Shown in pieces: positions 3,327 through 22,911 of a stretch of 22,911 nt of DNA (the stretch's first letter is position 1; each line of letters begins with the position of its first letter). The stretch is taken from IMG/VR virus record IMGVR_UViG_2541047860_000001; one strand, given 5' to 3'. Source of the stretch: a virus (lineage: Duplodnaviria > Heunggongvirae > Uroviricota > Caudoviricetes). The notes below the pieces were generated by a model that saw only the letters and a list, made by a program, of their open reading frames with translations, searched no databases and was not told the DNA's origin. Both the position numbers and the translations under genes were made by a program.

Positions 3327-3655
3327 CAGTTCACCACCTGTTCAAACTCTGCGCTGAACTCAACACGCAGCATACTGACCCGCGACGACCATTTTGCGCA
3401 GGTCACCTTTATCTGCCGCCACTCATAAGGCGGCGTCCACAGAAAGGACTTCCAGCCCCCGTGCTCAGCCAGAAACGACTCAAGCGCCGTGGCCTCCCAA
3501 CGGGGAACAGAAAGCGTCACGCTGTACGTTTTCAGGTCGGCATTCAGCCCGGCAGGCGCTCGCTGGGAATAGCCATCACCAAAGCGCACCTTTCTTACGG
3601 AAGGGGCCGAAGCCACATCCATACCGGGTTTCACTTTCCAGCGGAAGGTTTTCAT
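3326..3655 (-). CDS. M: Minor tail protein M (109 aa)
   Basis: 109 aa, MKTFRWKVKPGMDVASAPSVRKVRFGDGYSQRA..., same length and position as lambda M; overlaps the H stop. Confidence 0.92.
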   Translation of the reverse strand: MKTFRWKVKPGMDVASAPSVRKVRFGDGYSQRAPAGLNADLKTYSVTLSVPRWEATALESFLAEHGGWKSFLWTPPYEWRQIKVTCAKWSSRVSMLRVEFSAEFEQVVN

Positions 3656-6213
3656 CGTCCACCTCCGGAGAACAGACCACCATCGCGCATCTGTGTCTGA
3701 ATTTCATCACGGGCACCCTTGCGGGCCATGTCATACACTGCCTTCATCATCTGTGGACCTGGCAGACCATTCGTACCGTCGTTCTGAATCACCACGTGAT
3801 TGTTCTGATTAAAATTAATGCCTTCAGCCCGCCGCATCTGCGCCGGACTTCCGGCACCGCCCACATAACCACCTTCCGCATAGCCCCGCATCAGGCGGTA
3901 CAGGTTGCCGACACCAATCCGGCTGGTTGCCTCCTTCGTGAAGACAAATTCACCACGGTGAACAATCCCCGCTGGCTCATATTTGCCGCCGGTTCCCGTA
4001 AATCCTCCGGTTGCAAAATGGAATTTCGCCGCAGCGGCCTGAATGGCTGTACCGCCTGACGCGGATGCGCCGCCACCAACAGCCCCGCCAATGGCGCTGC
4101 CGATACTCCCGACAATCCCCACCATTGCCTGCTTAAGCAGAATTTCTGTCATCATGGACAGCACGGAACGGGTGAAGCTGCGCCAGTTCTGCTCACTGCC
4201 GGTCAGCATCGCCGCCATATTCTGTGCAATACCATCAAAGGTCTGCGTGGCTGCACTTTTTACCTGCGACATACTGTCCGTGGCGCTCTCTTCCCACTCA
4301 CTCCAGCCGGACTTCAGGCCTGCCATCCAGCTCCCGCGAAGCTGGTCTTCAGCCGCCCAGGTCTTTTTCTGCTCTGACATGACGTTATTCAGCGCCAGCG
4401 GATTATCGCCATACTGTTCCTTCAGGCGCTGTTCCGTGGCTTCCCGTTCTGCCTGCCGGTCAGTCAGCCCCCGGCTTTTCGCATCAATGGCGGCCCGTTT
4501 TGCCCGTTGCTGCTGTGCGAATTTATCCGCCTGCTGCGCCAGCGCGTTCAGGCGCTCCTGATACGTAACCTTGTCGCCAAGTGCAGCCAGCTGGCGTTTG
4601 TACTCCAGCGTCTCATCTTTATGCGTCAGCAGGGATTTCTCCTGTGCAGACAGCTGGCGACGTTGCGCCGCCTCCTCCAGTACCGCGAACTGACTCTCCG
4701 CCTTCCACAAATCCCGGCGCTGCTGGCTGATTTTCTCATTCGCTCCGGCATGCTTCTCCAGCGTCCGGAGTTCTGCCTGAAGCGTCAGCAGGGCAGCATG
4801 AGCACTGTCTTCCTGACGATCGCCCGCAGACACCTTCACGCCGGACTGTTTCGGCTTTTTCAGCGTCGCTTCATAATCCTTTTTCGCCGCCGCCATCAGC
4901 GTGTTGTAATCCGCCTGCAGGATTTTCCCGTCTTTCAGTGCCTTGTTCAGTTCTTCCTGACGGGCGGTATATTTCTCCAGCGGCGTCTGCAGCCGTTCGT
5001 AAGCCTTCTGCGCCTCTTCGGTATATTTCAGCCGTGACGCTTCGGTATCGCTCTGCTGCTGCGCATTTTTGTCCTGTTGAGTCTGCTGCTCAGCCTTCTT
5101 TCGGGCGGCTTCAAGCGCAAGACGGGCCTTTTCACGATCATCCCAGTAACGCGCCCGCGCTTCATCGTTAACAAAATAATCATCCTTGCGCAGATTCCAG
5201 ATGTCGTCTGCTTTCTTAAACGCAGCCTCTGCCTTAATCAGCATCTCCTGCGCGGTATCAGGACGACCAATATCCAGCACCGCATCCCACATGGATTTGA
5301 ATGCCCGCGCTGTCCTGTCTGCCCAGGTCTCCAGCGTGCCCATGTTCTCTTTCAGCCGGCGGGTCTGGTCATCAAACCCTTTCGTTGCGGCCTCGTTCGC
5401 CGCCTGCAATGCCCCGGCCTCATCGCCGGAACGCTGCAACTGAGCAACATACGCAATCTGCTCCGCCGTCACGTTATGGAACTGGCGTGCCATCGCTGTC
5501 AGCCCTGACGTCGGGTCTGTGGTCAGCTTCCCGAAGGCTTCAGCGACCTTGTCCATCTCCACGCCGGATGCAGAGGAGAAACGCGCCACACTCTGGCTGA
5601 TGGACGCAATCTGAGCCTCACCGCTTACCCCCGCCTTAACCAGTGCGCTGAGTGACTCGCTGGTCTGGTTAAACGTCAGCCCTGCCGCCTGCCCGGCTCT
5701 GGACAGGACCAGCATACGATCTGCCGTCAGTCCCGCCTGATTGCCGGAAAGGACCAGCGTTTTGTTGAAATCGGACAGGGTTGAGTTGCCCTGATACCAG
5801 GCATACGCCAGCGCACCGGTCGCCACCGCCAGCGAGGTGGCCCCCACCATCGGCAGGGTGATCGCACCGGCAAGCCCCCTGAACATGGGGATCATCCCGC
5901 CGAAGGAGTCCTTAACCTGACCACCCTGTTGCAGCAGGATCAGCCACGGACTTTGCCCGCCTGCAAGCTGCGTGGCCACGTCGGTGAACTGTGCAGGCAG
6001 CATACGCATGGCGGTTTTATACTGCCCGACGGAAATCCCCGCTTTCTGTGCAGCCAGCGCCTGTCGGCTCAGCGACTGTTCAACGACTGCCGCTGTTTTT
6101 TTCGCATCACTTTCCGTACCGGAAAAATGACGCCTGACTCTGGCCATCTGCTCGTCAAATCTGGCCGCATCCAGACTCAAATCAACGACCAGATCGCCTA
6201 CCGGTTCAGCCAT
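3652..6213 (-). CDS. H: Tail tape measure protein H (853 aa)
   Basis: 853 aa, identical in length to lambda H; coiled-coil-rich centre (ERLNALAQQADKFAQQQRAKRAA...) and Gly-rich C-terminal region. Confidence 0.93.
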   Translation of the reverse strand: MAEPVGDLVVDLSLDAARFDEQMARVRRHFSGTESDAKKTAAVVEQSLSRQALAAQKAGISVGQYKTAMRMLPAQFTDVATQLAGGQSPWLILLQQGGQVKDSFGGMIPMFRGLAGAITLPMVGATSLAVATGALAYAWYQGNSTLSDFNKTLVLSGNQAGLTADRMLVLSRAGQAAGLTFNQTSESLSALVKAGVSGEAQIASISQSVARFSSASGVEMDKVAEAFGKLTTDPTSGLTAMARQFHNVTAEQIAYVAQLQRSGDEAGALQAANEAATKGFDDQTRRLKENMGTLETWADRTARAFKSMWDAVLDIGRPDTAQEMLIKAEAAFKKADDIWNLRKDDYFVNDEARARYWDDREKARLALEAARKKAEQQTQQDKNAQQQSDTEASRLKYTEEAQKAYERLQTPLEKYTARQEELNKALKDGKILQADYNTLMAAAKKDYEATLKKPKQSGVKVSAGDRQEDSAHAALLTLQAELRTLEKHAGANEKISQQRRDLWKAESQFAVLEEAAQRRQLSAQEKSLLTHKDETLEYKRQLAALGDKVTYQERLNALAQQADKFAQQQRAKRAAIDAKSRGLTDRQAEREATEQRLKEQYGDNPLALNNVMSEQKKTWAAEDQLRGSWMAGLKSGWSEWEESATDSMSQVKSAATQTFDGIAQNMAAMLTGSEQNWRSFTRSVLSMMTEILLKQAMVGIVGSIGSAIGGAVGGGASASGGTAIQAAAAKFHFATGGFTGTGGKYEPAGIVHRGEFVFTKEATSRIGVGNLYRLMRGYAEGGYVGGAGSPAQMRRAEGINFNQNNHVVIQNDGTNGLPGPQMMKAVYDMARKGARDEIQTQMRDGGLFSGGGR

Positions 6214-6640
6214 ACCGGACTCCTCCTGCGATCCCTTCTGATACTGTCATCAGCATTACGTCATCCTCCGTCATGTCCGCCACATCCGGGGAAGCGGGGA
6301 TAACTTCATTCCCGTCCGGGCCAAAACGAACGCCTCCGGCAAGCCCTGCCGCTTTCTGCATCAGCACATCATCTTCAGGCTCTTCGTCAGCCTCGCGCCG
6401 GTTCAGCAGACTGAAATCCAGCGGATGCATCTCCGGATCGCTGAAAAACAGGCTGAGCACGGTGTACGTCAGCCCGGAAAAGTGCATATCCAGCAGAACA
6501 TCATGAAAATAATGGGTACTGTAAAAGCGGTGCCAGTCGGCATACTCCGTGGATGACATCCCGGCAAGCATGGCGCGCCAGTCGGGTCGCCCCATCTCAC
6601 GCGCCAGTTTCAGGGCAAAACTCAGCTCACCGTCGAACAC
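6206..6640 (-). CDS. T: T reading frame of the tail assembly chaperone; expressed as the G-T fusion by -1 programmed frameshift, not from its own start
   Basis: Seen: 144-codon frame overlapping the 3' end of G, with the slippery heptamer GGGAAAG at the junction. Established: lambda gpG/gpGT frameshift. Confidence 0.85.
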   Translation of the reverse strand: MFDGELSFALKLAREMGRPDWRAMLAGMSSTEYADWHRFYSTHYFHDVLLDMHFSGLTYTVLSLFFSDPEMHPLDFSLLNRREADEEPEDDVLMQKAAGLAGGVRFGPDGNEVIPASPDVADMTEDDVMLMTVSEGIAGGVRYG

Positions 6641-7044
6641 TTTCCCGCAGAAACAGGCTCTGCAGGCCCGGCGTCCTCTGCCTGTTCAGGAGCATCATTC
6701 ACCACAAACTCATACATACCGGACAGCCGGTACACCACGTTTTCAGCATGAGAAATTGCCTCTGTGGGCCAGGTGGTAAGCACTTCCTGCTCAATCTGTT
6801 TAACGGCTTCATTCATGGAAGGCAGCTTTGTCTTCTTCGGATGGTTATGCCACAGGGACATCGCCACCAGAAACGCGCCGGTTCTGATGGCGTCTTCCAC
6901 AGTAAACTTCCGGTTGCTGTCTGACTCCGCCTGTTCTGCCTGCCGTTTCATCAGGTCGAGATGCTCAATACGCTGCAGGGCTGACAGTTCAGAAAGCGTG
7001 ACGGTCACACCGTTATGTTCAAATGATTCGGTTTTCAGGAACAT
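6622..7044 (-). CDS. G: Tail assembly chaperone G (140 aa)
   Basis: 140 aa, MFLKTESFEHNGVTVTLSELSALQRIEHL..., matches lambda G. Confidence 0.92.
   Translation of the reverse strand: MFLKTESFEHNGVTVTLSELSALQRIEHLDLMKRQAEQAESDSNRKFTVEDAIRTGAFLVAMSLWHNHPKKTKLPSMNEAVKQIEQEVLTTWPTEAISHAENVVYRLSGMYEFVVNDAPEQAEDAGPAEPVSAGKCSTVS
6639..6645 (-). promoter_or_regulatory. -1 programmed ribosomal frameshift slippery site G GGA AAG (G to G-T)
   Basis: Seen: minus-strand GGGAAAG (plus-strand ctttccc) 5-6 codons before the G stop, exactly where the T frame opens. Confidence 0.8.
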
Positions 7045-7059
7045 CGCTGACTCTCCGGA

Positions 7060-7800
7060 TTAACTGGCGGTGACGTTGATTTCTGCAACCGCAGCAAACT
7101 CACCATTACCAGATACGACCGGAATGTTGACCTTGCCTGCAGCAACACCTTTCACGGTGATGGTCATACCACTGACCGACACGGTGGCTTTTGTTTTATC
7201 CGCAGACACCGCACGGAAGCTCTTGTCGGTTGCGCCATCCGGCTGGAATGCCACGGTCAGCGTGGTGCTCTGCCCTTTCACTACGGAAGCACTGGCGGGT
7301 GTCACCGTCATGCCGGTCGTCGCCGTCACCGTGCTGCGATCTTCTGCCATCGACGGACGTCCCACATTGGTGACCTTCACCGTGCGGGTAATCACTTCCT
7401 TCGCCGTCACCGCCTTACCGATACTGCTGACCCAGCCACGGAACACATCGACCGTGCCGTTCGGGAAGCGGATTTTATAGGCACGGGTATCACCTTCATT
7501 AAACCACGCCAGCAGCGCCTGCTGCCCCTGCTCTCCGGGCATCCACGCCAGCGTGAAGCTGGTATCTCCGGCAGATTTCTGCCCCTGTCCGGTCGCGGTC
7601 CAGTCCGCATCTTCATCATCGAGATAACTGTCGTCATAGGACTCAGCGGTCAGTTCGCCGGGCGTCAGGTCTTTAACCTTTGCCAGACGCGACCAGTCAT
7701 TGTCTGAAAGCGGGTTTGCATAAGGGTCGCCGCTCCCGTTATAAACCCACAGTGTGGTCCCGGCCCCTTTCACCGGTGCCAGAGGATTTGGTGTTGGCAT
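7060..7800 (-). CDS. V: Major tail tube protein V with C-terminal Ig-like domain (246 aa from [16 protein letters not shown])
   Basis: ORF track frame; internal ATG at 7800 gives the lambda gpV length. The C-terminal third ([25 protein letters not shown]...[25 protein letters not shown]) has Big_2-like character. Confidence 0.9.
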
Positions 7801-7807
7801 ATCGTCC

Positions 7808-8203
7808 TCACATTTCATAGGTAATGACATAAGTCAGATCGGCTGAACTCCACAGGCCCGCATCATCGTCGCGCCGGTAGTCATAGCCACTGGCCACCAT
7901 ACTGGTGATCAAATCTGACAGTGCCGGGATATCGCTCATCACCGGATAAATCCGGGACTCCATCCACGAATCCAGCTCTGAATCCGGCACCTGAGCAGGC
8001 AGGAAAACTTCAATATGCAGCTCCGCCTGCCAGGTATCGCTGTCCAGCTCTTCGCCCGTGTATTCAGCGCCGGTGAGATAAACGGCAACTGCCGGAAAAT
8101 CTTCCTCATCAAAAACAGCGGGGCGACCATCAAAAAGCGTCGCCCCGGTGTCATGCTTCTCCAGTGCATCCAGTACGGCTGCACGGAGTTCAGTATGTTT
8201 CAT
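7808..8203 (-). CDS. U: Tail terminator protein U (131 aa)
   Basis: 131 aa, [36 protein letters not shown]..., matches lambda U. Confidence 0.92.
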
Positions 8204-8778
8204 CGCTTTATTACCATTCTCAGTTGATGCTGCAGCGCATAGCCCAGCTCTTTCGGAAGACGCTCACGCCGTATCCGCTCAATATTCTGTTTAAACGCCG
8301 TGGTCAGCGGCACCGCCATCGGGATTTTCACCACATCAATGGGGTAACGGTTTTTCCCGGCCACACGCTGCATGACATGCCACCGGCCATTTTTCAGTTG
8401 CTGAATAAACGCGCCGGGAATACGACGGTTTCCCACCACAAGCACGCTGCCGCCACCTTTCAGGGATGAACGCTGCCCCTTTTTACGACGCCTGCGGCGG
8501 GACAGGACAACCCGCGCATTACCCAGCTTGATTACGGGCAAATCCCCCCGGTTAACCCTGATTCTGGCCTGCGGATTTTTGACCGTGGCCCTTTTCAGCC
8601 TGGCCCTTTCCTTTACCAGTTTCCGGCGTACCTTTGTCTCACGGGCAACCTGTGACGCAGACTGCGATATCGCGGATGACGCAACGCGGTTAATGGCCAT
8701 TGCGGCGGCACCAGGCACCGCCGTTTTGCTGATACGGCTGAGGTTTTCAACGGCCTGCTCAAGACCTTTTATGGCCAT
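8200..8778 (-). CDS. Z: Tail completion protein Z (192 aa)
   Basis: 192 aa, MAIKGLEQAVENLSRISKTAVPGAAAMAINRV..., matches lambda Z; 4-nt overlap with U. Confidence 0.92.
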   Translation of the reverse strand: MAIKGLEQAVENLSRISKTAVPGAAAMAINRVASSAISQSASQVARETKVRRKLVKERARLKRATVKNPQARIRVNRGDLPVIKLGNARVVLSRRRRRKKGQRSSLKGGGSVLVVGNRRIPGAFIQQLKNGRWHVMQRVAGKNRYPIDVVKIPMAVPLTTAFKQNIERIRRERLPKELGYALQHQLRMVIKR

Positions 8779-8789
8779 ACATCCCCCTT

Positions 8790-9143
8790 TCAGCGGCGAC
8801 GGTTAACGGCAGGCGGTACGCCCCGCCCAAGCCAGAGATGACAGCTTCCGCCATCATCCGGCGAAATCCGGTCTATCCAGAAGTTTTCCTCACCGATGGT
8901 CAGCGTGTCGCCGCGCCGCAGCTGCCGCACATCATCAGTCCGGACAAACAGGGACGGGCTGGAGCCTTCAACGCGCACGCCCTGTCCGGCATAGCTGATA
9001 TTTTCAGGGTCATCAAAAACACCACGTATCACCGCACCTGACTGCTCACCGGATGTCATGGTGGCTGACGTTCCCATGTACCCGCGTATCGTTTCATCGG
9101 CGCGGGCAATGGCAGCATCGAACAGGTTATCGAAATCAGCCAC
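8790..9143 (-). CDS. FII: Head-tail connector protein FII (117 aa)
   Basis: 117 aa, MADFDNLFDAAIARADETIRGYMGTSATMTSGEQSGAVIRGVFDDPENISYAGQGVRVEG..., matches lambda FII. Confidence 0.92.
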   Translation of the reverse strand: MADFDNLFDAAIARADETIRGYMGTSATMTSGEQSGAVIRGVFDDPENISYAGQGVRVEGSSPSLFVRTDDVRQLRRGDTLTIGEENFWIDRISPDDGGSCHLWLGRGVPPAVNRRR

Positions 9144-9154
9144 AGCGCCTCCCG

Positions 9155-9553
9155 TTATTGCATTCTGGCCAGGCCGCGCTCTGTCATTTCGGCTGCCACA
9201 CCGGCAGAGACACGAAACGCCGTTCCCGGCAGCACAAATGCCACAGGTTTATCCCGCGTGGCGTGAAGTGCATCAGTATGCAGCGTCACCAGTGCCACGA
9301 CCGTGACCAGTTCAGCCGTATCCTGAATCACGGTATCCGGCTGCGCTGATACCACCTCATTTTCATGCCCGGTCAGCACATTTTCCCGGCTGAGAGGGGT
9401 GTCCTGACCGGCAGTTTCATCCGTGTCATCAAGCTCTTCTTCCAGCTCTGCCACACGAAGCGCCAGTTCTTCTTTCGTTCCCGTCAAACTGACATCACGG
9501 TTCAGTTGTTCACCCAGCGAGCGGAGACGGGCAATCAGTTCATCTTTCGTCAT
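9155..9553 (-). CDS. FI: DNA packaging protein FI (132 aa from MTKDELIARLRSLGEQL)
   Basis: Internal ATG at 9553 preceded by GGAGGAG; length and sequence as lambda FI. The track ORF starting at 9592 is an upstream in-frame extension. Confidence 0.88.
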   Translation of the reverse strand: MTKDELIARLRSLGEQLNRDVSLTGTKEELALRVAELEEELDDTDETAGQDTPLSRENVLTGHENEVVSAQPDTVIQDTAELVTVVALVTLHTDALHATRDKPVAFVLPGTAFRVSAGVAAEMTERGLARMQ

Positions 9554-9594
9554 GGACTCCTCCACAGAGAAACAATGGCCCCGAAGGGCCATGA

Positions 9595-10620
9595 TTACGC
9601 CAGTTGTACGGACACGAACTCATCAGGATCAGCCAGCAGCATCAGCGGTGCTGACTGAATCATGGTGAACTCACGCGCCGGATCGCCGGTGGTCACCCAG
9701 TTTTTCGGGTAGCGGGCAGAGGCGTTAATACCTTCGCGCTGTGCGTCCGCATCCTGAATGCAGCCATAGGTGCGCAGACCGCGTGCCTGAGTGTTCCCCA
9801 GCACCATCGTGTTGTCCGGCAGGAAGTTCTTTTTGACGTCGTTTTCCACGTACTGTCCGGAATACACGACGATCGCCGTATCGCCATACATCCCCTTATA
9901 GGACACCGCTTCGCCCAGGTCTTTTACCGCTGTCTCCAGCTCGGAATTAGAGCCGCGACGGGTATCCAGCTTCTCCTTGACGGCTTTGAAGGAACGGAAC
10001 AGCGCCCAGCCTTTCGGATCAAACACGATGATATTCACCACGCCGCTGGCGTTCAGCGCATAGGCTTCGATATCGTCGGTCGGGTCATACGTGGACTTGT
10101 CACACTTGCTCCACTCCGTACCACCGGACTGTGTGATGTTGTTCGCCGCACTGCGGCCCATATCCACCTCAACCGGATCGAAGGCTTCACCGGTCATGGT
10201 GTATTTGCCCTTAAGCACAGCAGAAACTGCCTGCATCTCTTCGACCTGAGCAATGGCCAGCTCTTCGTCTCGCATGTTCTGCATGATGATGCGACGGCGG
10301 CGGTAAGCCGGGTCCGCCAGATTCTGCGGATCTTCATCCGGCAGGCGACGCAGGGTCATCTGCGGATTCACCTCATGCTTGGGTTTGACATATCCCGGCG
10401 TAAATTCAGAGGTGGAGCCGCCACGGGAACGGATAACCTCACCGGAAACAATCGGCGAAACGTACAGCGCCATGTTTACCAGTCCCGGAATTTGTGAGAG
10501 ATAGACTTTCTCCGTGGTGAAGGGATAGCTCTCACGGAAAAAGAGACGCAGAAACAGCGGATCAAACTTAAATTTCTGCTCATTTGCCGCCAGCAGCTGG
10601 GCGGTTGTGTACATCGACAT
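9595..10620 (-). CDS. E: Major capsid protein E (341 aa from MSMYTTAQLLAANEQKFKFDPLFLRLFF)
   Basis: ATG at 10620; lambda gpE length and N-terminus. Confidence 0.93.
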   Translation of the reverse strand: MSMYTTAQLLAANEQKFKFDPLFLRLFFRESYPFTTEKVYLSQIPGLVNMALYVSPIVSGEVIRSRGGSTSEFTPGYVKPKHEVNPQMTLRRLPDEDPQNLADPAYRRRRIIMQNMRDEELAIAQVEEMQAVSAVLKGKYTMTGEAFDPVEVDMGRSAANNITQSGGTEWSKCDKSTYDPTDDIEAYALNASGVVNIIVFDPKGWALFRSFKAVKEKLDTRRGSNSELETAVKDLGEAVSYKGMYGDTAIVVYSGQYVENDVKKNFLPDNTMVLGNTQARGLRTYGCIQDADAQREGINASARYPKNWVTTGDPAREFTMIQSAPLMLLADPDEFVSVQLA

Positions 10621-10633
10621 AAAAAAATCCCGT

Positions 10634-10654
10634 AAAAAAAGCCGCACAGGCGGC
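10634..10654 (-). terminator. D-E intergenic stem-loop (GCCGC-CUGU-GCGGC) followed by U7; partial terminator or RNA-stability hairpin
   Basis: Seen: 5-bp GC stem at 10641-10654 with an A-run on the plus strand (U-run in the minus transcript) between the D stop and the E start. Confidence 0.45.
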
Positions 10655-10675
10655 CTTTAGTGATGAAGGGTAAAG

Positions 10676-11008
10676 TTAAACGATGCTGATTGCCGTTCCG
10701 GCAAACGCGGTCCGTTTTTTCGTCTCGTCGCTGGCAGCCTCCGGCCAGAGCACATCCTCATAACGGAACGTGCCGGACTTGTAGAACGTCAGCGTGGTGC
10801 TGGTCTGGTCAGCATCAACCGCCAGAATGCCAACGGCAGTACCGTCGGTGGTGCCATCCCACGCAACCAGCTTACGGGTGGAGGTGTCCAGCATCAGCGG
10901 GGTCATTGCAGGCGCTTTCGCACTCAATCCGCCGGGCGCGGTTGCGGTATGAGCCGGGTCACTGTTGCCCAGCGGCTGGTAATGGGTAAAGGTTTCTTTG
11001 CTCGTCAT
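10676..11008 (-). CDS. D: Capsid decoration protein D (110 aa from [27 protein letters not shown])
   Basis: Matches lambda gpD; start taken at the MTSKET Met (11008). Confidence 0.92.
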
Positions 11009-11017
11009 AAACATCCC

Positions 11018-11413
11018 TTACACTGGTGTGTTCAGCAAATCGTTAACGGCATCAGATGCCGGGTTACCTGCAGCCAGCGGTGCCGGTGCCCCCTGCATCA
11101 GACGATCCAGCGCAGTGTCACTGCGCGCCTGTGCACTCTGTGGTGCAGCTGCCAGAATGCGGCGGGCCGTTTCCACGGTCATACCGGGGGTTTCTGCCAG
11201 CACGCGGGCCTGTTCTTCGCGTCCGTGAGCCTCCTCACAGTTGAGGATCCCCATAATGCGGCTGTTTTCTGCCGCAACCGCAGCGGTGATCTGCGCGTTC
11301 ACGTCCGGCTGCGCCGCGCTGGCGTTTTCGCCCTCCGTCGCTGGCACCACGTCAGTAACGTCAGCCTGCGAAGCAGTGGCTGAAACAGTTGTTGATTGAG
11401 TCTCTTTGGTCAT
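11018..11413 (-). CDS. Nu3: Scaffolding protein Nu3 (131 aa), in-frame internal start within the 3' part of C
   Basis: Seen: ATG at 11413 preceded by AGGAGG; MTKETQSTTVSATASQADVTDVVPATEGE.... Established: lambda Nu3 is nested in frame in C. Confidence 0.85.
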   Translation of the reverse strand: MTKETQSTTVSATASQADVTDVVPATEGENASAAQPDVNAQITAAVAAENSRIMGILNCEEAHGREEQARVLAETPGMTVETARRILAAAPQSAQARSDTALDRLMQGAPAPLAAGNPASDAVNDLLNTPV

Positions 11414-12317
11414 TCGCCCTCCTGAGAGACGGGATTTACGTGCATCCAGTGCATCACGCATAACGGTGATCGCATCGGTGCTGTTGACAAGTTCATCAGC
11501 CAGTCCGGCATCAATGGCCTCCTGACCGCTGTACACTGCAGCCTCGGTATCCAGCACAGCCTGCACGGACAGGCCGGTATATGCCGACACCTTCTGTGCA
11601 AACATCCGGCGGGTTGCATCCATCCGGGACTGCAATGTTTCCCGGACATCATCCGGTAGATGGCTGTAGGGGTTGCCATCCACCTTATGGCTGCCGCTGT
11701 AAATCAGCGTGATTTCCACGCCCTGTTTCTCCAGTGCAGCGCCGTAATTACTGTGAGCCATCATGACGCCGATGGAGCCTGTCCGGGCGGTCTGCGTGAC
11801 CAGACGCCGGGAGGCGGCACTGGCAAGCAGCTGACCTGCGCTGCAGTTCATGTCATTGGCCAGCGCCCATACCGGCTTTATGTCACGCACACGGGCGATG
11901 ATGTCAGCGCAGTCAAATGCCCCCGCCACCATCCCGCCGGGCGTGTCCATATCGAGCAGAATGCCGTCCACCATCGGATCGCTGGCAGCCTGTTGCAGAC
12001 GGGCGATAATGCCGTTGTAACCGGTCATCCCCGAGTACGGCTGCAGCGCCCGCGTCCGGCTGACCAGCGTGCCGGACACCGGCAGCACGGCGATGCCGTT
12101 CATGACCTGATAACTGCGGGCCTGTCGTGGTCCGTCATCATCACCGGATAATGCCAGCGTCGCGAGTGCCTCCTGGGCAGTCAGGCTGTCGCCGGACACC
12201 GCATCCGTCAGGCGGCTGATCCCAAGCTGGCCTGCAAGCGCACAAAAGAAAACCCGCGCATAGGCGGGTTCAAGCATCAGCGGCTCATTAAAAGCCATGC
12301 TGGCAATATGCGGGAGA

Positions 12318-12337
<20 letters not shown>
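11018..12337 (-). CDS. C: Head maturation protease/scaffold C (439 aa, GTG start)
   Basis: Seen: GTG at 12337 (VTAELRNLPHIASMAFNEPLMLEP...) overlapping the B stop by 20 nt; length equals lambda gpC. The 484-aa track ORF is an upstream extension. Confidence 0.88.
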
Positions 12338-16018
<3,681 letters not shown>

Positions 16019-16044
<26 letters not shown>

Positions 16045-16564
16045 TCAGCAACCCCGGTATCAGTTCATCCAGCGCGGCTGCTTTGTTCATGGCTTTGATG
16101 ATATCCCGTTTCAGGAAATCAACATGTCGGTTTTCCAGTTCCGGAAAACGCCGCTGCACCGACAGGGGGATCCCGTCGAGAATACTGGCAATTTCACCTG
16201 CGATCCGCGACAGCACGAAAGTACAGAATGCGGTTTCCACCACTTCAGCGGAGTCTCTGGCATTTTTCAGCTCCTGTGCGTCGGCCTGCGCACGCGTAAG
16301 TCGATGGCGTTCGTACTCAATAGTCCCTGGCTGGAGATCTGTCTCGCTGGCCTGCCGCAGTTCTTCAACTTCCCGGCGCAGCTTTTCGTTCTCAATTTCA
16401 GCATCCCTTTCGGCATACCATCTTATAACGGCGGCAGAGTCATAAAGCACCTCATTACCCTTGCCACCGCCTCGCAGAACGGGCATTCCCTGTTCCTGCC
16501 AGTTCTGAATGGTACGGATACTCGCACCGAAAATGTCAGCCAGCTGCTTTTTGTTGACTTCCAT
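16019..16564 (-). CDS. Nu1: Terminase small subunit Nu1 (181 aa)
   Basis: 181 aa, MEVNKKQLADIFGASIRTIQNWQEQGMPVLRGGGKGNEVLYDSAAVIRWYAERDAEIENEKLRREVEELRQ..., matches lambda Nu1. Confidence 0.94.
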
Positions 16565-16790
16565 TGTTCATTCCACGGCCAAAAACAGAGAAAGGAAACG
16601 ACAGAGGCCCAAAAGCTCGTTTTCAGCACCTGTCGTTTCCTTTCTTTTCAGGGGGTATTTTAAATAAAAACATTAAGTTACGACGAAGAAGAACGGAAAT
16701 GCCTTAAACCGGAAAATTTTCATAAATAGCGAAAACCCGCGAGGTCGCCGCCCCGTAACCTGTCGGATCGCCGGAAAGGACCCGCAAAAT
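16565..16790 (-). other. cos packaging site: cosB (about 16565-16741), cosN with the 12-nt cohesive-end sequence (16742-16753, plus strand AGGTCGCCGCCC = reverse complement of GGGCGGCGACCT), cosQ side (about 16754-16790)
   Basis: Seen: gaaaacccgcg-aggtcgccgccc-cgtaacctgtcggatcgccggaaaggaccc is the reverse complement of the lambda left-end/right-end junction. Established: lambda cos architecture. Confidence 0.88.
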
Positions 16791-16952
16791 GATAATAATT
16801 ATCATCTGCATGTCACAACGTGCATCTACGCCATCAAACCACGTCAAATAATCAATTATGACGCAGATATCGTATTAATTGATCTGCATCAACTTAACGT
16901 AAAAACAACTTCAGACAATACAAATCAGCGACACTGAATACGGGACAACCTC

Positions 16953-17186
16953 ATGTCAACGAAGAACAGAACCCGCAGAACAACAACCCGCAACATCCGC
17001 TTTCCTAACCAAATGATTGAACAAATTAACATCGCTCTTGAGCAAAAAGGGTCCGGGAATTTCTCAGCCTGGGTCATTGAAGCCTGCCGCCGGAGACTGT
17101 GCTCAGAAAAAAGAGTTTCTTCTGAAGCAAACAAAGAAAAGAGTGACATTACTGAATTGCTCAGAAAACAGGTCAGACCAGATTGA
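16953..17186 (+). CDS. ynfO: Small basic protein with ribbon-helix-helix-like core (77 aa); YnfO-like, equivalent to an ORF near the lambda right end
   Basis: Seen: MSTKNRTRRTTTRNIRFPNQMIEQINIALEQKGSGNFSAWVIEACRRRL... The strand/helix/turn/helix spacing is my reading, not a search result. Symbol assigned by position and memory of K-12 Qin. Confidence 0.7.
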   Translation: MSTKNRTRRTTTRNIRFPNQMIEQINIALEQKGSGNFSAWVIEACRRRLCSEKRVSSEANKEKSDITELLRKQVRPD

Positions 17187-17243
17187 AGCAATTTAGATAA
17201 TCGTGCAGACTACGCCCCCTCATATCACATGGAAGGTTTATCT

Positions 17244-17654
17244 ATGGATCAGGTAGTCATTTTTAAACAAATATTTGATAAAGTTCGAAACGATTTAAAC
17301 TATCAATGGTTTTATTCTGAGCTAAAACGTCACAATGTCTCACATTACATTTACTATTTAGCCACAGAGAATGTTCATATTGTATTAAAAAATGATAATA
17401 CAGTGTTATTAAAGGGCCTAAAAAACATTGTGTCTGTCAAATTTTCAAAGGATAGGCATCTTATAGAAACGACCTCTAATAAGCTGAAATCCAGAGAGAT
17501 CACATTTCAGGAATACAGAAGAAACCTTGCTAAAGCAGGAGTTTTTCGGTGGGTTACAAATATCCACGAACAAAAAAGATATTACTATACCTTTGATAAT
17601 TCATTACTATTTACTGAAAGCATCCAGAAAACTACACAGATCTTACCACGCTAA
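17244..17654 (+). CDS. ydfO: DUF1398-type protein, YdfO-like (136 aa from [11 protein letters not shown]; the track ORF starts 5 codons upstream at 17229)
   Basis: Seen: GGAAGG 9 nt before the ATG at 17244; the sequence (…[46 protein letters not shown]...) matches my memory of E. coli YdfO. Function unknown. Confidence 0.75.
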
Positions 17655-17662
17655 ACCATAAC

Positions 17663-17691
17663 GTCCGGCTTCTCTCACTCCTGAGCCGGAC
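17663..17691 (+). terminator. Possible stem-loop between convergent ydfO and gnsB (GTCCGGCT / AGCCGGAC, 13-nt loop); no clear U-tract
   Basis: Seen: 8-bp inverted repeat immediately after the ydfO stop. Weak as an intrinsic terminator. Confidence 0.3.
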
Positions 17692-17805
17692 TGCATTGGT
17701 TTAATAAAAACCATCAACAATTGTGATTTAGATATTCGGAACCATTCAAATATAACAAAACCCCGTAAAAACGAGGTTTATGGATAAATTTTATTATTGA
17801 ATACA

Positions 17806-17979
17806 TCAGATTAAATTAATCTTGACATCATAGCTTTCAAGACCCGTCATTTTTTCCCGTGCGGTAAACTGAATACTGGTAACTTCTTTCCCGGTCTTTT
17901 TCTTAAGTTCAATAATTTTTTTTGTTATATATTCAGAAATATCTGCTTCTGCTTTTGTTTTTAAGTTTTCAATATTCAT
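17806..17979 (-). CDS. gnsB: GnsA/GnsB-family small protein (57 aa); not in the ORF track because it is under 60 aa
   Basis: Seen: minus-strand ORF M(M)NIENLKTKAEADISEYITKKIIELKKKTGKEVTSIQFTAREKMTGLESYDVKINLI; tandem ATGs at 17982 and 17979. Established: GnsB is encoded in K-12 Qin. Confidence 0.75.
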   Translation of the reverse strand: MNIENLKTKAEADISEYITKKIIELKKKTGKEVTSIQFTAREKMTGLESYDVKINLI

Positions 17980-18150
17980 CATTTCCTCTTTTAGTCTGTT
18001 ATGACTTTCCAGTTACACAGTAAGTCGATTATATGGTGCAAACGTGTAAAAGATAAGATGAAACATCGCAATAATCAACATACGATAGTCTAAATTTTAC
18101 ACAAACAGACAAAGAAAATTTTCCTGAATTATCAATACAATAGCATCAAA

Positions 18151-18381
18151 TCAACTCAAGAGCCTTATTGCTGCTTCCAGAATTTCTTCTGAAGTAACAT
18201 GTCGATCCGCGGCTACATAAATGACTTTATGATCTCCGGTCAGAGATGGAAACCCTGCGGCCATTACAGTAAGGTGTGTTTTTTCGCCATTTGGATATTC
18301 ACGCATGATGGTGTTAACTCCAGTCATCGCTGGCACTACCACTGCAGGTTCAGAGTTAAAAAAAACTATGATTTTTTTCAT
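18151..18381 (-). CDS. Small protein of unknown function (76 aa from MKKIIVFFNSEPAVVVPAMTGV...; alternative start 18423 gives 90 aa); by position possibly YnfN-like
   Basis: ORF track 18151-18423; no strong SD before either start; sits between gnsB and cspI. I cannot confirm identity from memory. Confidence 0.5.
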   Translation of the reverse strand: MKKIIVFFNSEPAVVVPAMTGVNTIMREYPNGEKTHLTVMAAGFPSLTGDHKVIYVAADRHVTSEEILEAAIRLLS

Positions 18382-18418
18382 GATGTTACCGTAGTATGTG
18401 AGTATCCATCGAATAGAT

Positions 18419-18446
18419 ACCAAGCAAAAAAGCTCCCGAAGGAGCC
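18419..18446 (-). terminator. Candidate intrinsic terminator downstream of cspI (GCUCC-UUCG-GGAGC + U6)
   Basis: Seen: 5-bp GC stem at 18432-18445 with a run of 6 A on the plus strand (U in the minus transcript). Short stem; it overlaps the longer alternative start of the adjacent small ORF. Confidence 0.4.
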
Positions 18447-18652
18447 TTCATTTTCACTTTTTTAAATCCAACGACAGACGGCTGGCATTTAAGTATTGTG
18501 AAATATTATCAAATGTAATCATCATTGATTTACAAAAGATACATTTTGCCCCGAAAGGATTCATGTCAGAAACATCAAAAGATGATGTTCTATACTGGGA
18601 ACCATGACAACACGGGCATCTAAAGTGAATATGGTTTGTAATATTGTCTACC

Positions 18653-18865
18653 TCAAAGCGCCACTACATGAACAGCGGCAGGACCTTTAGGTCCGTTCTC
18701 AATACCAAATTCAACTTCCTGATTCTCAGTTAATGTTTTGAAATCGTTGCTCTGAATTGCTGAGAAATGGACAAACACATCTTTGCTGCCATCTTTCGGC
18801 GTGATGAAACCAAAACCTTTTTCAGGGTTAAACCATTTCACTAAACCAGTCATTTTGTTAGACAT
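18653..18865 (-). CDS. cspI: Cold-shock protein, CspA family (70 aa), CspI
   Basis: Seen: [70 protein letters not shown]; RNP1-like KGFGFI and RNP2-like VFVHF motifs; matches remembered CspI. Confidence 0.9.
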
Positions 18866-19228
18866 AATTATTACCTTTTGAAGAAATTAGCCCTTGGGCA
18901 GAATGGTCCGAAAAAAAATATCAGAGAGAAAAACCAACAAGGAAATCTCAAGAGGTACAAATAATAAAATTATAACAATGACTGCTTCAGATAAATTTGT
19001 AACAAACCAGAACACCATTAACGCATGATTAACCACCCATAGCAAGGATTACTTTTGTAAAGAAAAACACAGCAATGAAAGAATAGCTTTATTTATTAAT
19101 AATAACGTGTCATTCTGATTAAGACCTTTTATCTTACCCTTAAGATTTCAGGAATTTTGGCTCATGGAAGAGTCCTTTTTATTTAAATTTTACATTCCGC
19201 GATGTAAATGTTCCGATTTAATATTACC

Positions 19229-20252
<1,024 letters not shown>

Positions 20253-20256
<4 letters not shown>

Positions 20257-20564
20257 ATATATTTATGATGAGGACGCTCGTGCTTATTGGCAGGATTTTC
20301 AATCTTAAAGGAGTACTGATGCTGCAGATAAGACTCAACTTTTTCTGACAATTTTTCTGCTACTTCCAGGAAGACTTGCCGGACGCTCCTTCTGGCTGCT
20401 GCCTCATAAAACTCCAGCGCAGCTCCTTCAACACGGTCCATGGCGACATCCAGGTCAAAAATTTCACCGTCAAAGCGTTCTTTGTCCTGTAAGGCTACAG
20501 TTACCGTAACTTTATTCTCAAAATTACGGACTCCTTTCACAACCAGTTCATAGTCTTGAGTCAT
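20253..20564 (-). CDS. ydfR: DUF1327-type protein of unknown function (103 aa) between holin and endolysin
   Basis: Seen: MTQDYELVVKGVRNFENKVTVTVALQDKERFDGEIFDLDVAMDRVEGAALEFYEAAARR...; GGAGAG SD; stop overlaps the endolysin ATG (ATGA). Symbol by synteny with K-12 Qin. Confidence 0.75.
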
Positions 20565-20568
20565 TGGA

Positions 20569-20784
20569 TTACTCTCCTCTCGCAGCCTTACGCCTGTCTT
20601 CTTTAATCTTGAAATAAAGATTTGTCAGATACGTCAGCAGGCCAAAAACCAGGCTACCCAGCACACCGATTGCAGCCCACTGTGACGGAGTTACTTTATC
20701 GAGTAACTGCAATGCCCAGAAACCAGCATTACCCGCCGATGTGCCATAGGCAACACCTGTTGTTAACTTATCCATTGATTTCAT
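20569..20784 (-). CDS. essQ: Class II holin of S21 pinholin type (71 aa) with dual-start motif MKSM
   Basis: Seen: [71 protein letters not shown], two TM segments, close to phage-21 S; GGGGTGAGGA SD before the ATG at 20784. The track ORF starting at 20859 is an extension without RBS. Confidence 0.88.
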
Positions 20785-21224: not shown

Positions 21225-21256
21225 GCAGATAATAAAAAACCCGCCTGAGCGGGTTT
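21225..21256 (-). terminator. Intrinsic terminator (AAACCCGC-UCAG-GCGGGUUU + U-tract) downstream of cspB
   Basis: Seen: 8-bp stem at 21237-21256 followed on the minus strand by UUUUUUAUUAUC; on the plus strand it lies about 65 nt after the zinc-ribbon ORF, so it may act in both directions. Confidence 0.6.
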
Positions 21257-21537
21257 GAGATTGTGGTGCTTTTTGTGGGAGTCATCCACTTACGCACTTT
21301 GTTTTGCCATGCCAGCAGTTAGCTTCTGCTGTAAAACTATTCATGCAGCAAACCTGCACTTCACCACAATGGTTAGCATACTTTTCCTGATTAAGATTTT
21401 GCCAAATATGCTAGCCATTGTTTCATGTATTGGACCTCCTTACTTTTTATTAAAGAGATCCAATATTCACTACTCTGTCCGTATCTCTACTCAGGCATCA
21501 GCCTTCTTCGTTATCGTATACAGACGAGCGATGAATT

Positions 21538-21753
21538 TTAATCAGTAATGATGACATTTGCTGCTGCAGGACCTTTAGCACCACTCTCTATAGAGAAGGT
21601 AACCTTTTGACCTTCAAATAAGGTTCGATAATTATCATTCTGAATCGCAGAAAAATGCACAAACACATCTTTACTACCATCAACAGGAGAAATAAAGCCG
21701 AAACCTTTATCAGCGTTAAACCATTTTACTAAACCAGTCATTTTATTTGACAT
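21538..21753 (-). CDS. cspB: Cold-shock protein, CspA family (71 aa), CspB
   Basis: Seen: [71 protein letters not shown]; matches remembered CspB. Confidence 0.9.
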
Positions 21754-21960
21754 TCTACATTCCTTAACTTGAGCCTTTCGGCATAAATGGTTTGCATAAC
21801 AGAAACGACTTCGTACTTAATTGGAGAGACTCAAAGAAGGAATAAGTGAATAACACCTGAAATGAGAACTGCTTTAGTAAACTACTTCGTATATCGTCTG
21901 TTCTTCAAACCGACGCAATCATTAACGCATAGTTGAACATATGAAGCAATGTTTATTTTA
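21754..21960 (-). promoter_or_regulatory. cspB promoter and long 5' UTR with cold-box-like element (minus-strand CGGTTTGAAGAACAGACGA at 21894-21912)
   Basis: Seen: about 160-nt leader before cspB ending in the SD AAGGAATG; the motif resembles the cspA cold box (CGGTTTGACGTACAGAC); -35 TTGCTT / -10 GTTAAT candidates upstream. Established: cspA-type genes have long cold-box leaders. Confidence 0.55.
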
Positions 21961-22320: not shown

Positions 22321-22410
22321 ATGAATAACCCCGTCTGTCTTGATGACTGGTTGATTGGCTTTAAAAGCTTATGCTGTACTTTGGCCGTAATAGCTCTGCT
22401 AATAATATAA
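22321..22410 (+). CDS. Candidate small hydrophobic peptide (29 aa, [29 protein letters not shown])
   Basis: Seen: GGAGAG 6 nt before the ATG; C-terminal hydrophobic stretch long enough for a TM helix; a terminator follows at 22560-22595. Expression is unverified. Confidence 0.4.
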
Positions 22411-22556
22411 TAAGCAGACTCATTGTGTTTAGGGACATTGTACTGGAAGAAAACATTTTAAACATCAGGCAAATAACCAAGTCACCAGCTAAATAATAAG
22501 TTAACAGACATGAGTCCCGGGATGAGATTCAACATTACCATTGCCCCATTTAAAGC

Positions 22557-22595
22557 ACAAAACCCGCTCATCAGCGGGTTTTCTACTTTTTCTTA
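22557..22595 (+). terminator. Intrinsic terminator (AAACCCGCU-CAUC-AGCGGGUUU followed by UUCUACUUUUUCUU); a hairpin with a weaker U-tract also forms on the minus strand
   Basis: Seen: 9-bp stem at 22560-22581 and a T-rich tract 22582-22595. Confidence 0.65.
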
Positions 22596-22627
22596 ACGTC
22601 GGGTATACAAAGCCCATCGTTGAAAAA

Positions 22628-22656
22628 ATTTTATCCATATTTTTTGAAAAATGCAA
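22628..22656 (-). promoter_or_regulatory. Candidate sigma70 promoter on the minus strand (-35 TTGCAT, 17-bp spacer, -10 TAAAAT) pointing at the hairpin and the lysis genes; possible late promoter (pR'-like)
   Basis: Seen: hexamers at 22651-22656 and 22628-22633. Inference: its position upstream of the lysis module fits a Q-dependent late promoter with a short terminated leader. Confidence 0.4.
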
Positions 22657-22700
22657 ACATCATGTCGCCATCTTCAGCAAAAATCATTTATCTCGTCACC

Positions 22701-22911
22701 GGTGATGCTGCCAACTTACTGATTTAGTGTATGATGGTGTTTTTGAGGTGCTCCAGTGGCTTCTGTTTCTATCAGCTGTCCCTCCTGTTCAGCTACTGAC
22801 GGGGTGGTGCGTAACGGCAAAAGCACCGCCGGACATCAGCGCTATCTCTGCTCTCACTGCCGTAAAACATGGCAACTGCAGTTCACTTACACCGCTTCTC
22901 AACCCGGTACG
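22701..22911 (+). mobile_element. IS1 insertion sequence, left end (IRL from 22701), continuing beyond the window
   Basis: Seen: GGTGATGCTGCCAACTTACTGATTTAGTGTATGATGGTGTTTTTGAGGTGCTCCAGTGGCTTCTGTTTC is the IS1 left terminus as I recall it. Confidence 0.9.
22756..22911 (+). CDS. insA: IS1 InsA (transposition repressor), 5' part; GTG start
   Basis: Seen: GTG at 22756 then [51 protein letters not shown], a zinc-finger N-terminus identical to IS1 InsA. Confidence 0.9.

Follow-up and report, generated by a model that had tools for sequence, protein, structure and literature searches.

A probable lambda-type late promoter, pause and terminator cassette following quuQ in a Qin/SfV-type lambdoid prophage

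In this work, we have analysed a stretch of viral DNA of 22,911 nt (IMG/VR record IMGVR_UViG_2541047860_000001; hereafter, the window) and asked what lies on its minus strand just past the antiterminator gene quuQ. We are confident, short of certainty, that this segment is the late-gene cassette of a lambdoid prophage of the Qin/SfV type, made up of a late promoter (PR'), a Q-binding region, a sigma-dependent pause element, and a terminator (tR'), and served by QuuQ, an antiterminator of the Q-lambda family. An earlier, sequence-only reading had proposed a late promoter/terminator pair of the prophage at this place, and the proposal is upheld by the position directly after quuQ, the lambda-like architecture, the conservation of the elements, the late genes downstream, and an RNA 3' end mapped in E. 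coli K-12. Read in this manner, the cassette fixes the control point of the prophage's whole late operon.

The cassette is a textbook kind of element and leaves the textbook picture unchanged; what is described here is a previously uncharacterised member. It is unannotated in the K-12 RefSeq, and our literature search returned no paper giving the promoter sequence and none treating quuQ jointly with cspF. Among Rfam models, no match in the cassette region reaches the gathering threshold, the permissive matches being generic terminator or leader look-alikes. The coordinates of the cassette and of its surroundings are collected in Table 1.

Table 1. Features of the cassette and its neighbourhood, in window coordinates.
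Feature	Position	Strand	Basis or remark
IS1 left end (inverted repeat GGTGATGCTGCC, start of insA)	22701-22911	plus	inserted in the 3' end of quuQ
quuQ/ydfT last codons (V-T-R) and TAA stop	22688-22700	minus	alignment with K-12 Qin, SfV, and mEp460
-35 hexamer TTGCAT	22651-22656	minus	aligns with lambda TTGACT; invariant in 79/79 related loci
Spacer TTTTCAAAAAATATGGA, 17 bp	22634-22650	minus	putative QuuQ-binding site; position of the lambda PR' Q-binding element
-10 hexamer TAAAAT	22628-22633	minus	sequence and promoter scan
Discriminator TTTTTC	22622-22627	minus	comparison with lambda
Predicted start A 22621 and AACGATGGG	22613-22621	minus	register identical to lambda PR' +1 to +9
Expected pause zone	22605-22611	minus	predicted by comparison of the sequence with the T-N-Y-G consensus
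A-rich leader tract AAGAAAAAGUAGAAAA (+28 to +43)	22579-22594	minus	cassette part most variable between phages
Terminator hairpin (tR' equivalent) AAAACCCGCU-GAUG-AGCGGGUUUU	22559-22582	minus	10-bp stem, loop GAUG
U-rich tail UUUUGUGCUUU	22552-22562	minus	K-12 3' end corresponds to C 22555
ynfS	22321-22410	plus	29-aa small ORF in the K-12 annotation
Downstream late genes overall	3652-20784	minus	ORFs, PHROG matches, K-12 lysis-gene annotation
Holin essQ	20569-20784	minus	
Endolysin	19723-20256	minus	
Rz	19229-19726	minus	
Terminase small subunit	16019-16564	minus	
Terminase large subunit	14119-16044	minus	
Portal	12318-13919	minus	
Major head	9595-10647	minus	
Tape measure	3652-6213	minus	

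On the minus strand, the elements follow one another in the order TTGCAT, TTTTCAAAAAATATGGA, TAAAAT, TTTTTC, AACGATGGGCUUUGUAUACCCGACGUU, the A-rich AAGAAAAAGUAG, the hairpin, and GUGCUUUAAA, the last lying directly 3' of the hairpin. The cassette begins, with its -35 hexamer, 31 bp past the quuQ stop codon (22690-22688, in agreement with the K-12 annotation, which puts the end of ydfT at the equivalent of window position 22688) and on the same strand, and the hairpin is found 106 nt downstream of that stop. The sequence-only reading had described a near-consensus -35/-10 pair with a 17-bp spacer, located roughly 40-60 nt upstream of the hairpin. Both hexamers and the spacing are present as described, and the distance is accurate, with 45 nt between the -10 hexamer and the hairpin; the -35 hexamer, in contrast, falls short of near-consensus, matching TTGACA at only three of its six positions. 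A promoter scan favours TTTGCA with an 18-bp spacer (score 9/12), and promoter-like matches in this AT-rich region occur at the density expected by chance (10 in the region versus 7.0 +/- 2.8 in shuffles), so that the hexamers are unconvincing when taken alone. What raises the unit above chance is the composite, lambda-like pattern TTGNNT-N17-TAAAWT-N6-AACGATGGG, of which the window has one copy and none of 100 shuffles has any.

Six nucleotides past the -10 hexamer begins AACGATGGG, which is identical to positions +1 to +9 of lambda PR' and stands in the same register, and within it AACGAT, at +1 to +6, is identical to the -10-like, sigma70-dependent pause element of lambda. By analogy with lambda, we infer that transcription starts at A22621, seven nucleotides past the -10. 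From the -35 hexamer to +9, the window and lambda PR' are identical at 31 of 44 positions in an ungapped alignment. The lambda PR'-qut-tR' unit, which gives the 6S RNA, shares with the window a Q of family PF03589 with the cassette placed right after its gene, a 17-bp spacer, a 6-nt discriminator, and an intrinsic terminator ahead of the lysis genes. The Q-binding element of lambda PR' is located between the -35 and -10 hexamers (PMC9388147, PMC6266700), and the corresponding spacer of the window is identical to that of lambda at 11 of its 17 positions and differs at the other six.

The two cassettes also differ. The -35 hexamer is TTGCAT here and TTGACT in lambda; the leader measures 67 nt here versus 194 nt in lambda; and, unlike in lambda, a cold-shock module (cspF, cspB) lies between tR' and the holin gene. 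Next to its pause element, lambda has a -35-like TTGACT that serves sigma region 4 once Q has repositioned it (PMC9388147), whereas the window has TTTTTT at this place (22623-22628, sharing the final base of the -10 hexamer), a match at three of six positions; most phage variants read TTTTCT there, a match at four of six. A further difference concerns the pause consensus T-N-Y-G (PMC9191641), which in lambda occupies +14 to +17, where it modulates the pause and is not a defining feature of the cassette. The lambda T14-N-Y16-G17 is absent here: positions +14 to +17 read GTAT, the equivalents of lambda +16 and +17 being window positions 22606 and 22605. A TTTG that fits the consensus lies 3 nt earlier, at +11 to +14; it corresponds to an RNA 3' end at +13 (22609), and, judged from the sequence, pausing would be favoured near that position. 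The PR' regions of phages 21 and 82 follow the same logic of promoter, sigma-dependent pause, terminator, and Q loading, but their Q proteins belong to families unrelated to QuuQ (PF06530 and PF06323).

QuuQ itself is clearly placed by its sequence. The full-length K-12 protein matches PF03589, the Q-lambda family, with E = 3.6e-54, and lambda Q as present in PDB 7UBM (one of the loading-complex structures 7UBM/7UBN) with E = 4.6e-36. The N-terminal segment is conserved between the two proteins, and the QuuQ residues aligned to lambda Q L202 and T206 are the same; substitution of L202 or T206 in lambda Q impairs antitermination (PMC9388147). The two proteins differ by an insertion of ~43 residues in K-12 QuuQ (L001, 3422-4174), with which the protein has four CxxC motifs and a DnaJ-like zinc domain (PF00684), compared with two CxxC motifs in lambda Q. 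The second zinc-finger pair of QuuQ is located in an arm whose counterpart in lambda Q contacts DNA and sigma region 4 (PMC9388147), and the details of QuuQ loading may differ for this reason. With its lambda-identical pause element, shifted pause consensus, degenerate site for sigma region 4, and doubled zinc ribbon, the system offers a natural variant for studies of Q-lambda-type antitermination. We also considered a Q21-type cassette, given that Stx2c phages presumably carry what is called 'q21'; this candidate was rejected, as QuuQ matches PF03589 and the lambda Q structures and not the Q21 family.

The downstream end of the cassette is marked by the terminator hairpin. Its stem had been described as 9 bp and GC-rich, a claim that we correct to 10 bp with five G-C pairs. 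The element can be read as a hairpin on both strands and is flanked symmetrically by AAAA and UUUU. A simple terminator scan calls it on the plus strand only; the minus strand escapes the scan owing to a U tract that is short and interrupted (UUUUGUGCUUU), and which in the Qin lineage lacks 3 U that SfV and mEp460 have. The GenBank record of SfV labels the same hairpin as a putative rho-independent terminator. Across 18 variants, pairing is kept in 93% of cells, and four pairs show compensatory changes, with both sides altered. In some relatives the hairpin is replaced, at the same place, by another one, such as CCUCGC-UUCG-GCGGGG or ACCGC-CACCGA-GCGGU. At least three different hairpin sequences occupy the tR' position among the relatives.

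An RNA 3' end coincides with this hairpin in K-12. Window positions convert to K-12 coordinates (NC_000913.3) by adding 1,619,801, and the curated tables from the Term-seq study by Adams et al. 2021 (PMC7815308, supplementary file 1), which cover LB at OD 0.4, LB at OD 2.0, and M63, list a minus-strand 3' end of class 'orphan' at 1642356 in all three conditions, with 103,591 reads in LB at OD 0.4 and 55,368 in a second condition (PMC7815308). Judged by the flank printed for it, this end coincides with the C of GCGGGUUUUGUGC (window position 22555), in the U tail of the hairpin. We propose that this K-12 'orphan' end is explained as the tR' of the Qin prophage. As a matched 5' end was not found, the Term-seq 3' end could partly stem from quuQ transcripts. 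A start site at K-12 1642422(-), the counterpart of A22621, is not among the entries listed from Sun 2021, Ettwiller 2016, Kim 2012, and Yan 2018, which says little about the promoter; the start-site list of Kim 2012 goes from cspF straight to ydfU. Taken together, the predicted start at A22621 and the K-12 3' end at C22555 give an RNA of 67 nt, for which the predicted fold has an energy of -26.2 kcal/mol (z = -5.6). A conserved hairpin in the 5' leader, AACG/CGUU, was tried and rejected, its pairing being kept in the variants only via transitions opposite G or U and its fold in the window scoring no better than shuffles (z = -1.2). In one K-12 condition, Term-seq records another minus-strand 3' end at window position 22387 (K-12 1642188), antisense to ynfS and 168 nt beyond the terminator; the late-promoter transcript may give rise to it by read-through or processing.

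Conservation singles out the same elements. The 434 bp between cspF and quuQ are present in 1,629 of 5,426 complete E. coli genomes (about 30%) and match 35 phage records, a Salmonella phage (80% identity) among them. In the matches to SfV, mEp460, Stx2c-converting phages, and others, the homologous stretch opens at query base 293 (window position 22559, the foot of the hairpin); a mosaic boundary between phages thus falls right after the terminator. We surveyed 80 viral contigs encoding QuuQ at 94% identity or more, and the cassette is present in 79, the exception being a locus that extends no further than the Q stop codon. Counted over unique variants, the mean minor-allele frequency is 0.038 in the spacer, where 4 of 17 columns vary, and 0.017 in +1 to +9, versus 0.07-0.17 in the 3' coding part of quuQ, the intergenic stretch, the discriminator, and +10 to +27. 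The segment +1 to +9 is nearly invariant in the 79 loci, with rare AATGAT and GACGAT, while the -10 hexamer appears as TAAGAT or TAGGAT in related phages, keeping A at its second and T at its sixth position. When one genome per species was surveyed, the module was found only in Escherichia/Shigella representatives and in a single contig of a metagenome-assembled genome of Veillonella parvula (L090); the latter has an Escherichia-type cassette and is probably a binning error.

The active phages SfV and mEp460, together with phiSTEC1575-Stx2k and the Stx2c-converting phages, carry the cassette at 83-86% identity to the window, with the -35 hexamer, spacer, and pause element identical or nearly so and a hairpin at the same position. 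They differ from the window by a U tract of 6-7 nt, a TAAGAT -10 hexamer, and the absence of a convergent cspF, and what follows the terminator is either orf47/methylase or tRNAs and stx2. In phiSTEC1575-Stx2k (L092), stx2A follows the cassette at a distance of ~2.2 kb, past three tRNA genes. An unannotated Stx2c-converting phage (L091) also carries the module, and its stretch downstream of the module is 92% identical to the tRNA-stx2A 5' region of phiSTEC1575-Stx2k. Because this type of cassette stands upstream of stx2A in phiSTEC1575-Stx2k and the module occurs in Stx2c-converting phages, promoter strength, pausing, and terminator leakiness would bear on toxin output.

Based on the structures and pause studies of lambda (PMC9388147, PMC9191641), we can outline how such a cassette would operate. 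The sigma70-RNA polymerase would start at A22621, whereupon sigma region 2 would re-bind AACGAT at +1 to +6 and hold the enzyme in a promoter-proximal pause between +13 and +17. If Q is absent, the enzyme would escape from the pause and terminate at the hairpin, releasing the 67-nt RNA that ends at C22555. By homology to lambda, QuuQ would bind the spacer between the -35 and -10 hexamers and engage the paused complex together with NusA, and the modified, termination-resistant polymerase would read through tR', running antisense to ynfS and cspF. Read-through would continue via cspB and its terminator into the holin-endolysin-Rz genes and the head and tail genes, which span some 17 kb. The QuuQ dependence of this read-through is inferred by analogy with lambda. 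In the window, cspB lies downstream of the cassette on the same strand as the lysis and morphogenesis genes.

Whether the switch still operates in this particular genome is less certain, as an IS1 element has entered the 3' end of quuQ. Its edge lies 44 bp upstream of the late-promoter -35 hexamer, outside the cassette, and belongs to the context. The assignment to IS1 is based on the N-terminus of insA, which translates, and on IS1-family transposases annotated under the database matches; divergence from K-12 starts exactly at position 22701, and only the last quuQ codons are present in the window, the rest being cut off by the insertion. Neither the 5,426 complete E. coli genomes nor the species-representative genomes contain the IS1-quuQ junction; among the complete E. 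coli genomes, the sole full-coverage match is a two-piece match in a different arrangement. With the end of quuQ interrupted by IS1, the switch may no longer respond, and it is conceivable, if somewhat doubtful, that the cassette is a fossil here, with a promoter that fires and terminates while Q control has been lost through the insertion in a decaying prophage. IS1 begins inside the last quuQ codons, and the C-terminal residues L202 and T206 of lambda Q matter for antitermination (PMC9388147), both of which suit this reading; yet, with the far junction lying outside the window, the usual 9-bp target duplication would be predicted to keep all 250 quuQ codons and add only a tail of six residues. 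Moreover, the IS1-bearing genome retains an intact promoter, spacer, pause element, and terminator, and the late genes downstream form long open frames with strong matches to phage families. A second, independent IS1 insertion by the cassette is seen in another IMG/VR contig (L073), where an IS1 end (GGTAATGACTCCAACTTA...) stands directly after the terminator.

A different question is whether the product of the unit has acquired a function of its own. StxS of Stx phage and IsrK of Gifsy-1 are transcribed, as proposed here, from a promoter that directly follows a Q-like gene, and both are constitutive short RNAs ended at an antitermination-controlled terminator (PMC7547250, PMC4825925). Both have a demonstrated regulatory role, and StxS has been shown to bind Hfq, whereas the RNA considered here is not known to act in this way. 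We regard it as unlikely that the constitutive 67-nt RNA of this PR'-tR' unit has been co-opted, in the manner of StxS and IsrK, as a trans-acting host small RNA that binds Hfq. Besides these precedents for PR'-derived small RNAs, the abundance and stability of the K-12 3' end in three conditions (PMC7815308) are in keeping with such a role. The leader combines a terminator hairpin with the A-R-N-rich tract AAGAAAAAGUAGAAAA. The distal face of Hfq binds motifs of this A-R-N type. The tract, however, is not conserved in SfV-type variants, and no part of the cassette is less conserved than the segment from +28 to the hairpin. The Rfam isrK model (RF01394) does align end to end, but weakly, its score of 16.6 bits against a threshold of 50 (E = 0.05-0.26) being similar to those of several unrelated leader models. 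If this reading is true, about 30% of the complete E. coli genomes, K-12 included, would carry a constitutive host regulator.

Finally, the possibility that the hairpin functions above all as an ordinary 3' terminator, for quuQ and the early-right transcript on the minus strand and for cspF-ynfS on the plus strand, with incidental hexamers, draws on the plus-strand-only call of the terminator scan, the 106 nt between quuQ stop and hairpin, the lack of a 5' end matched to the Term-seq 3' end in the data examined, and the chance density of promoter-like matches, and is nonetheless highly improbable given that AACGATGGG is identical to lambda and sits at lambda's exact distance from a -10, that the -35 hexamer, spacer, and +1 to +9 are better conserved than the 3' coding sequence of quuQ, that phages without cspF keep the hairpin, and that the Term-seq lists hold no plus-strand 3' end at it.

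Within the late-cassette reading, a plus-strand use of the hairpin can still be accommodated. The sequence-only reading had also assigned to it the role of terminator for the cspF side, and this part of the claim stands only in weakened form: the hairpin fits the role by sequence, with no earlier terminator-like site on the plus strand past cspF/ynfS, but the K-12 Term-seq tables have no plus-strand 3' end at the hairpin in any of the three conditions (PMC7815308). The symmetry of the hairpin, together with its position as the first terminator-like site past cspF and ynfS, makes bidirectional use plausible. As the hairpin is kept in phages without cspF, a role on that side is secondary at most and not the reason for which the hairpin exists. 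Only the Qin lineage has the four-A tract; SfV reads GAAC at this place. We therefore consider it plausible, from the sequence, that the hairpin also stops convergent cspF/ynfS transcription, as a secondary use specific to the Qin lineage. The small ORF ynfS stands between cspF and the hairpin, in convergent orientation to the late promoter.

Further along the read-through path, a second symmetric, G+C-rich hairpin, AAACCCGC-TCAG-GCGGGTTT, is found at 21237-21256, between ynfU on the plus strand and cspB on the minus strand, and a plus-strand 3' end is listed there by the K-12 Term-seq data (1641060). The cold-shock genes cspB and cspI sit inside the late operon, co-oriented with the late genes, and their 5' regions (21522-21914 and 18626-19011, both minus) match the Rfam cspA thermoregulator with 158.8 and 112.8 bits, respectively.
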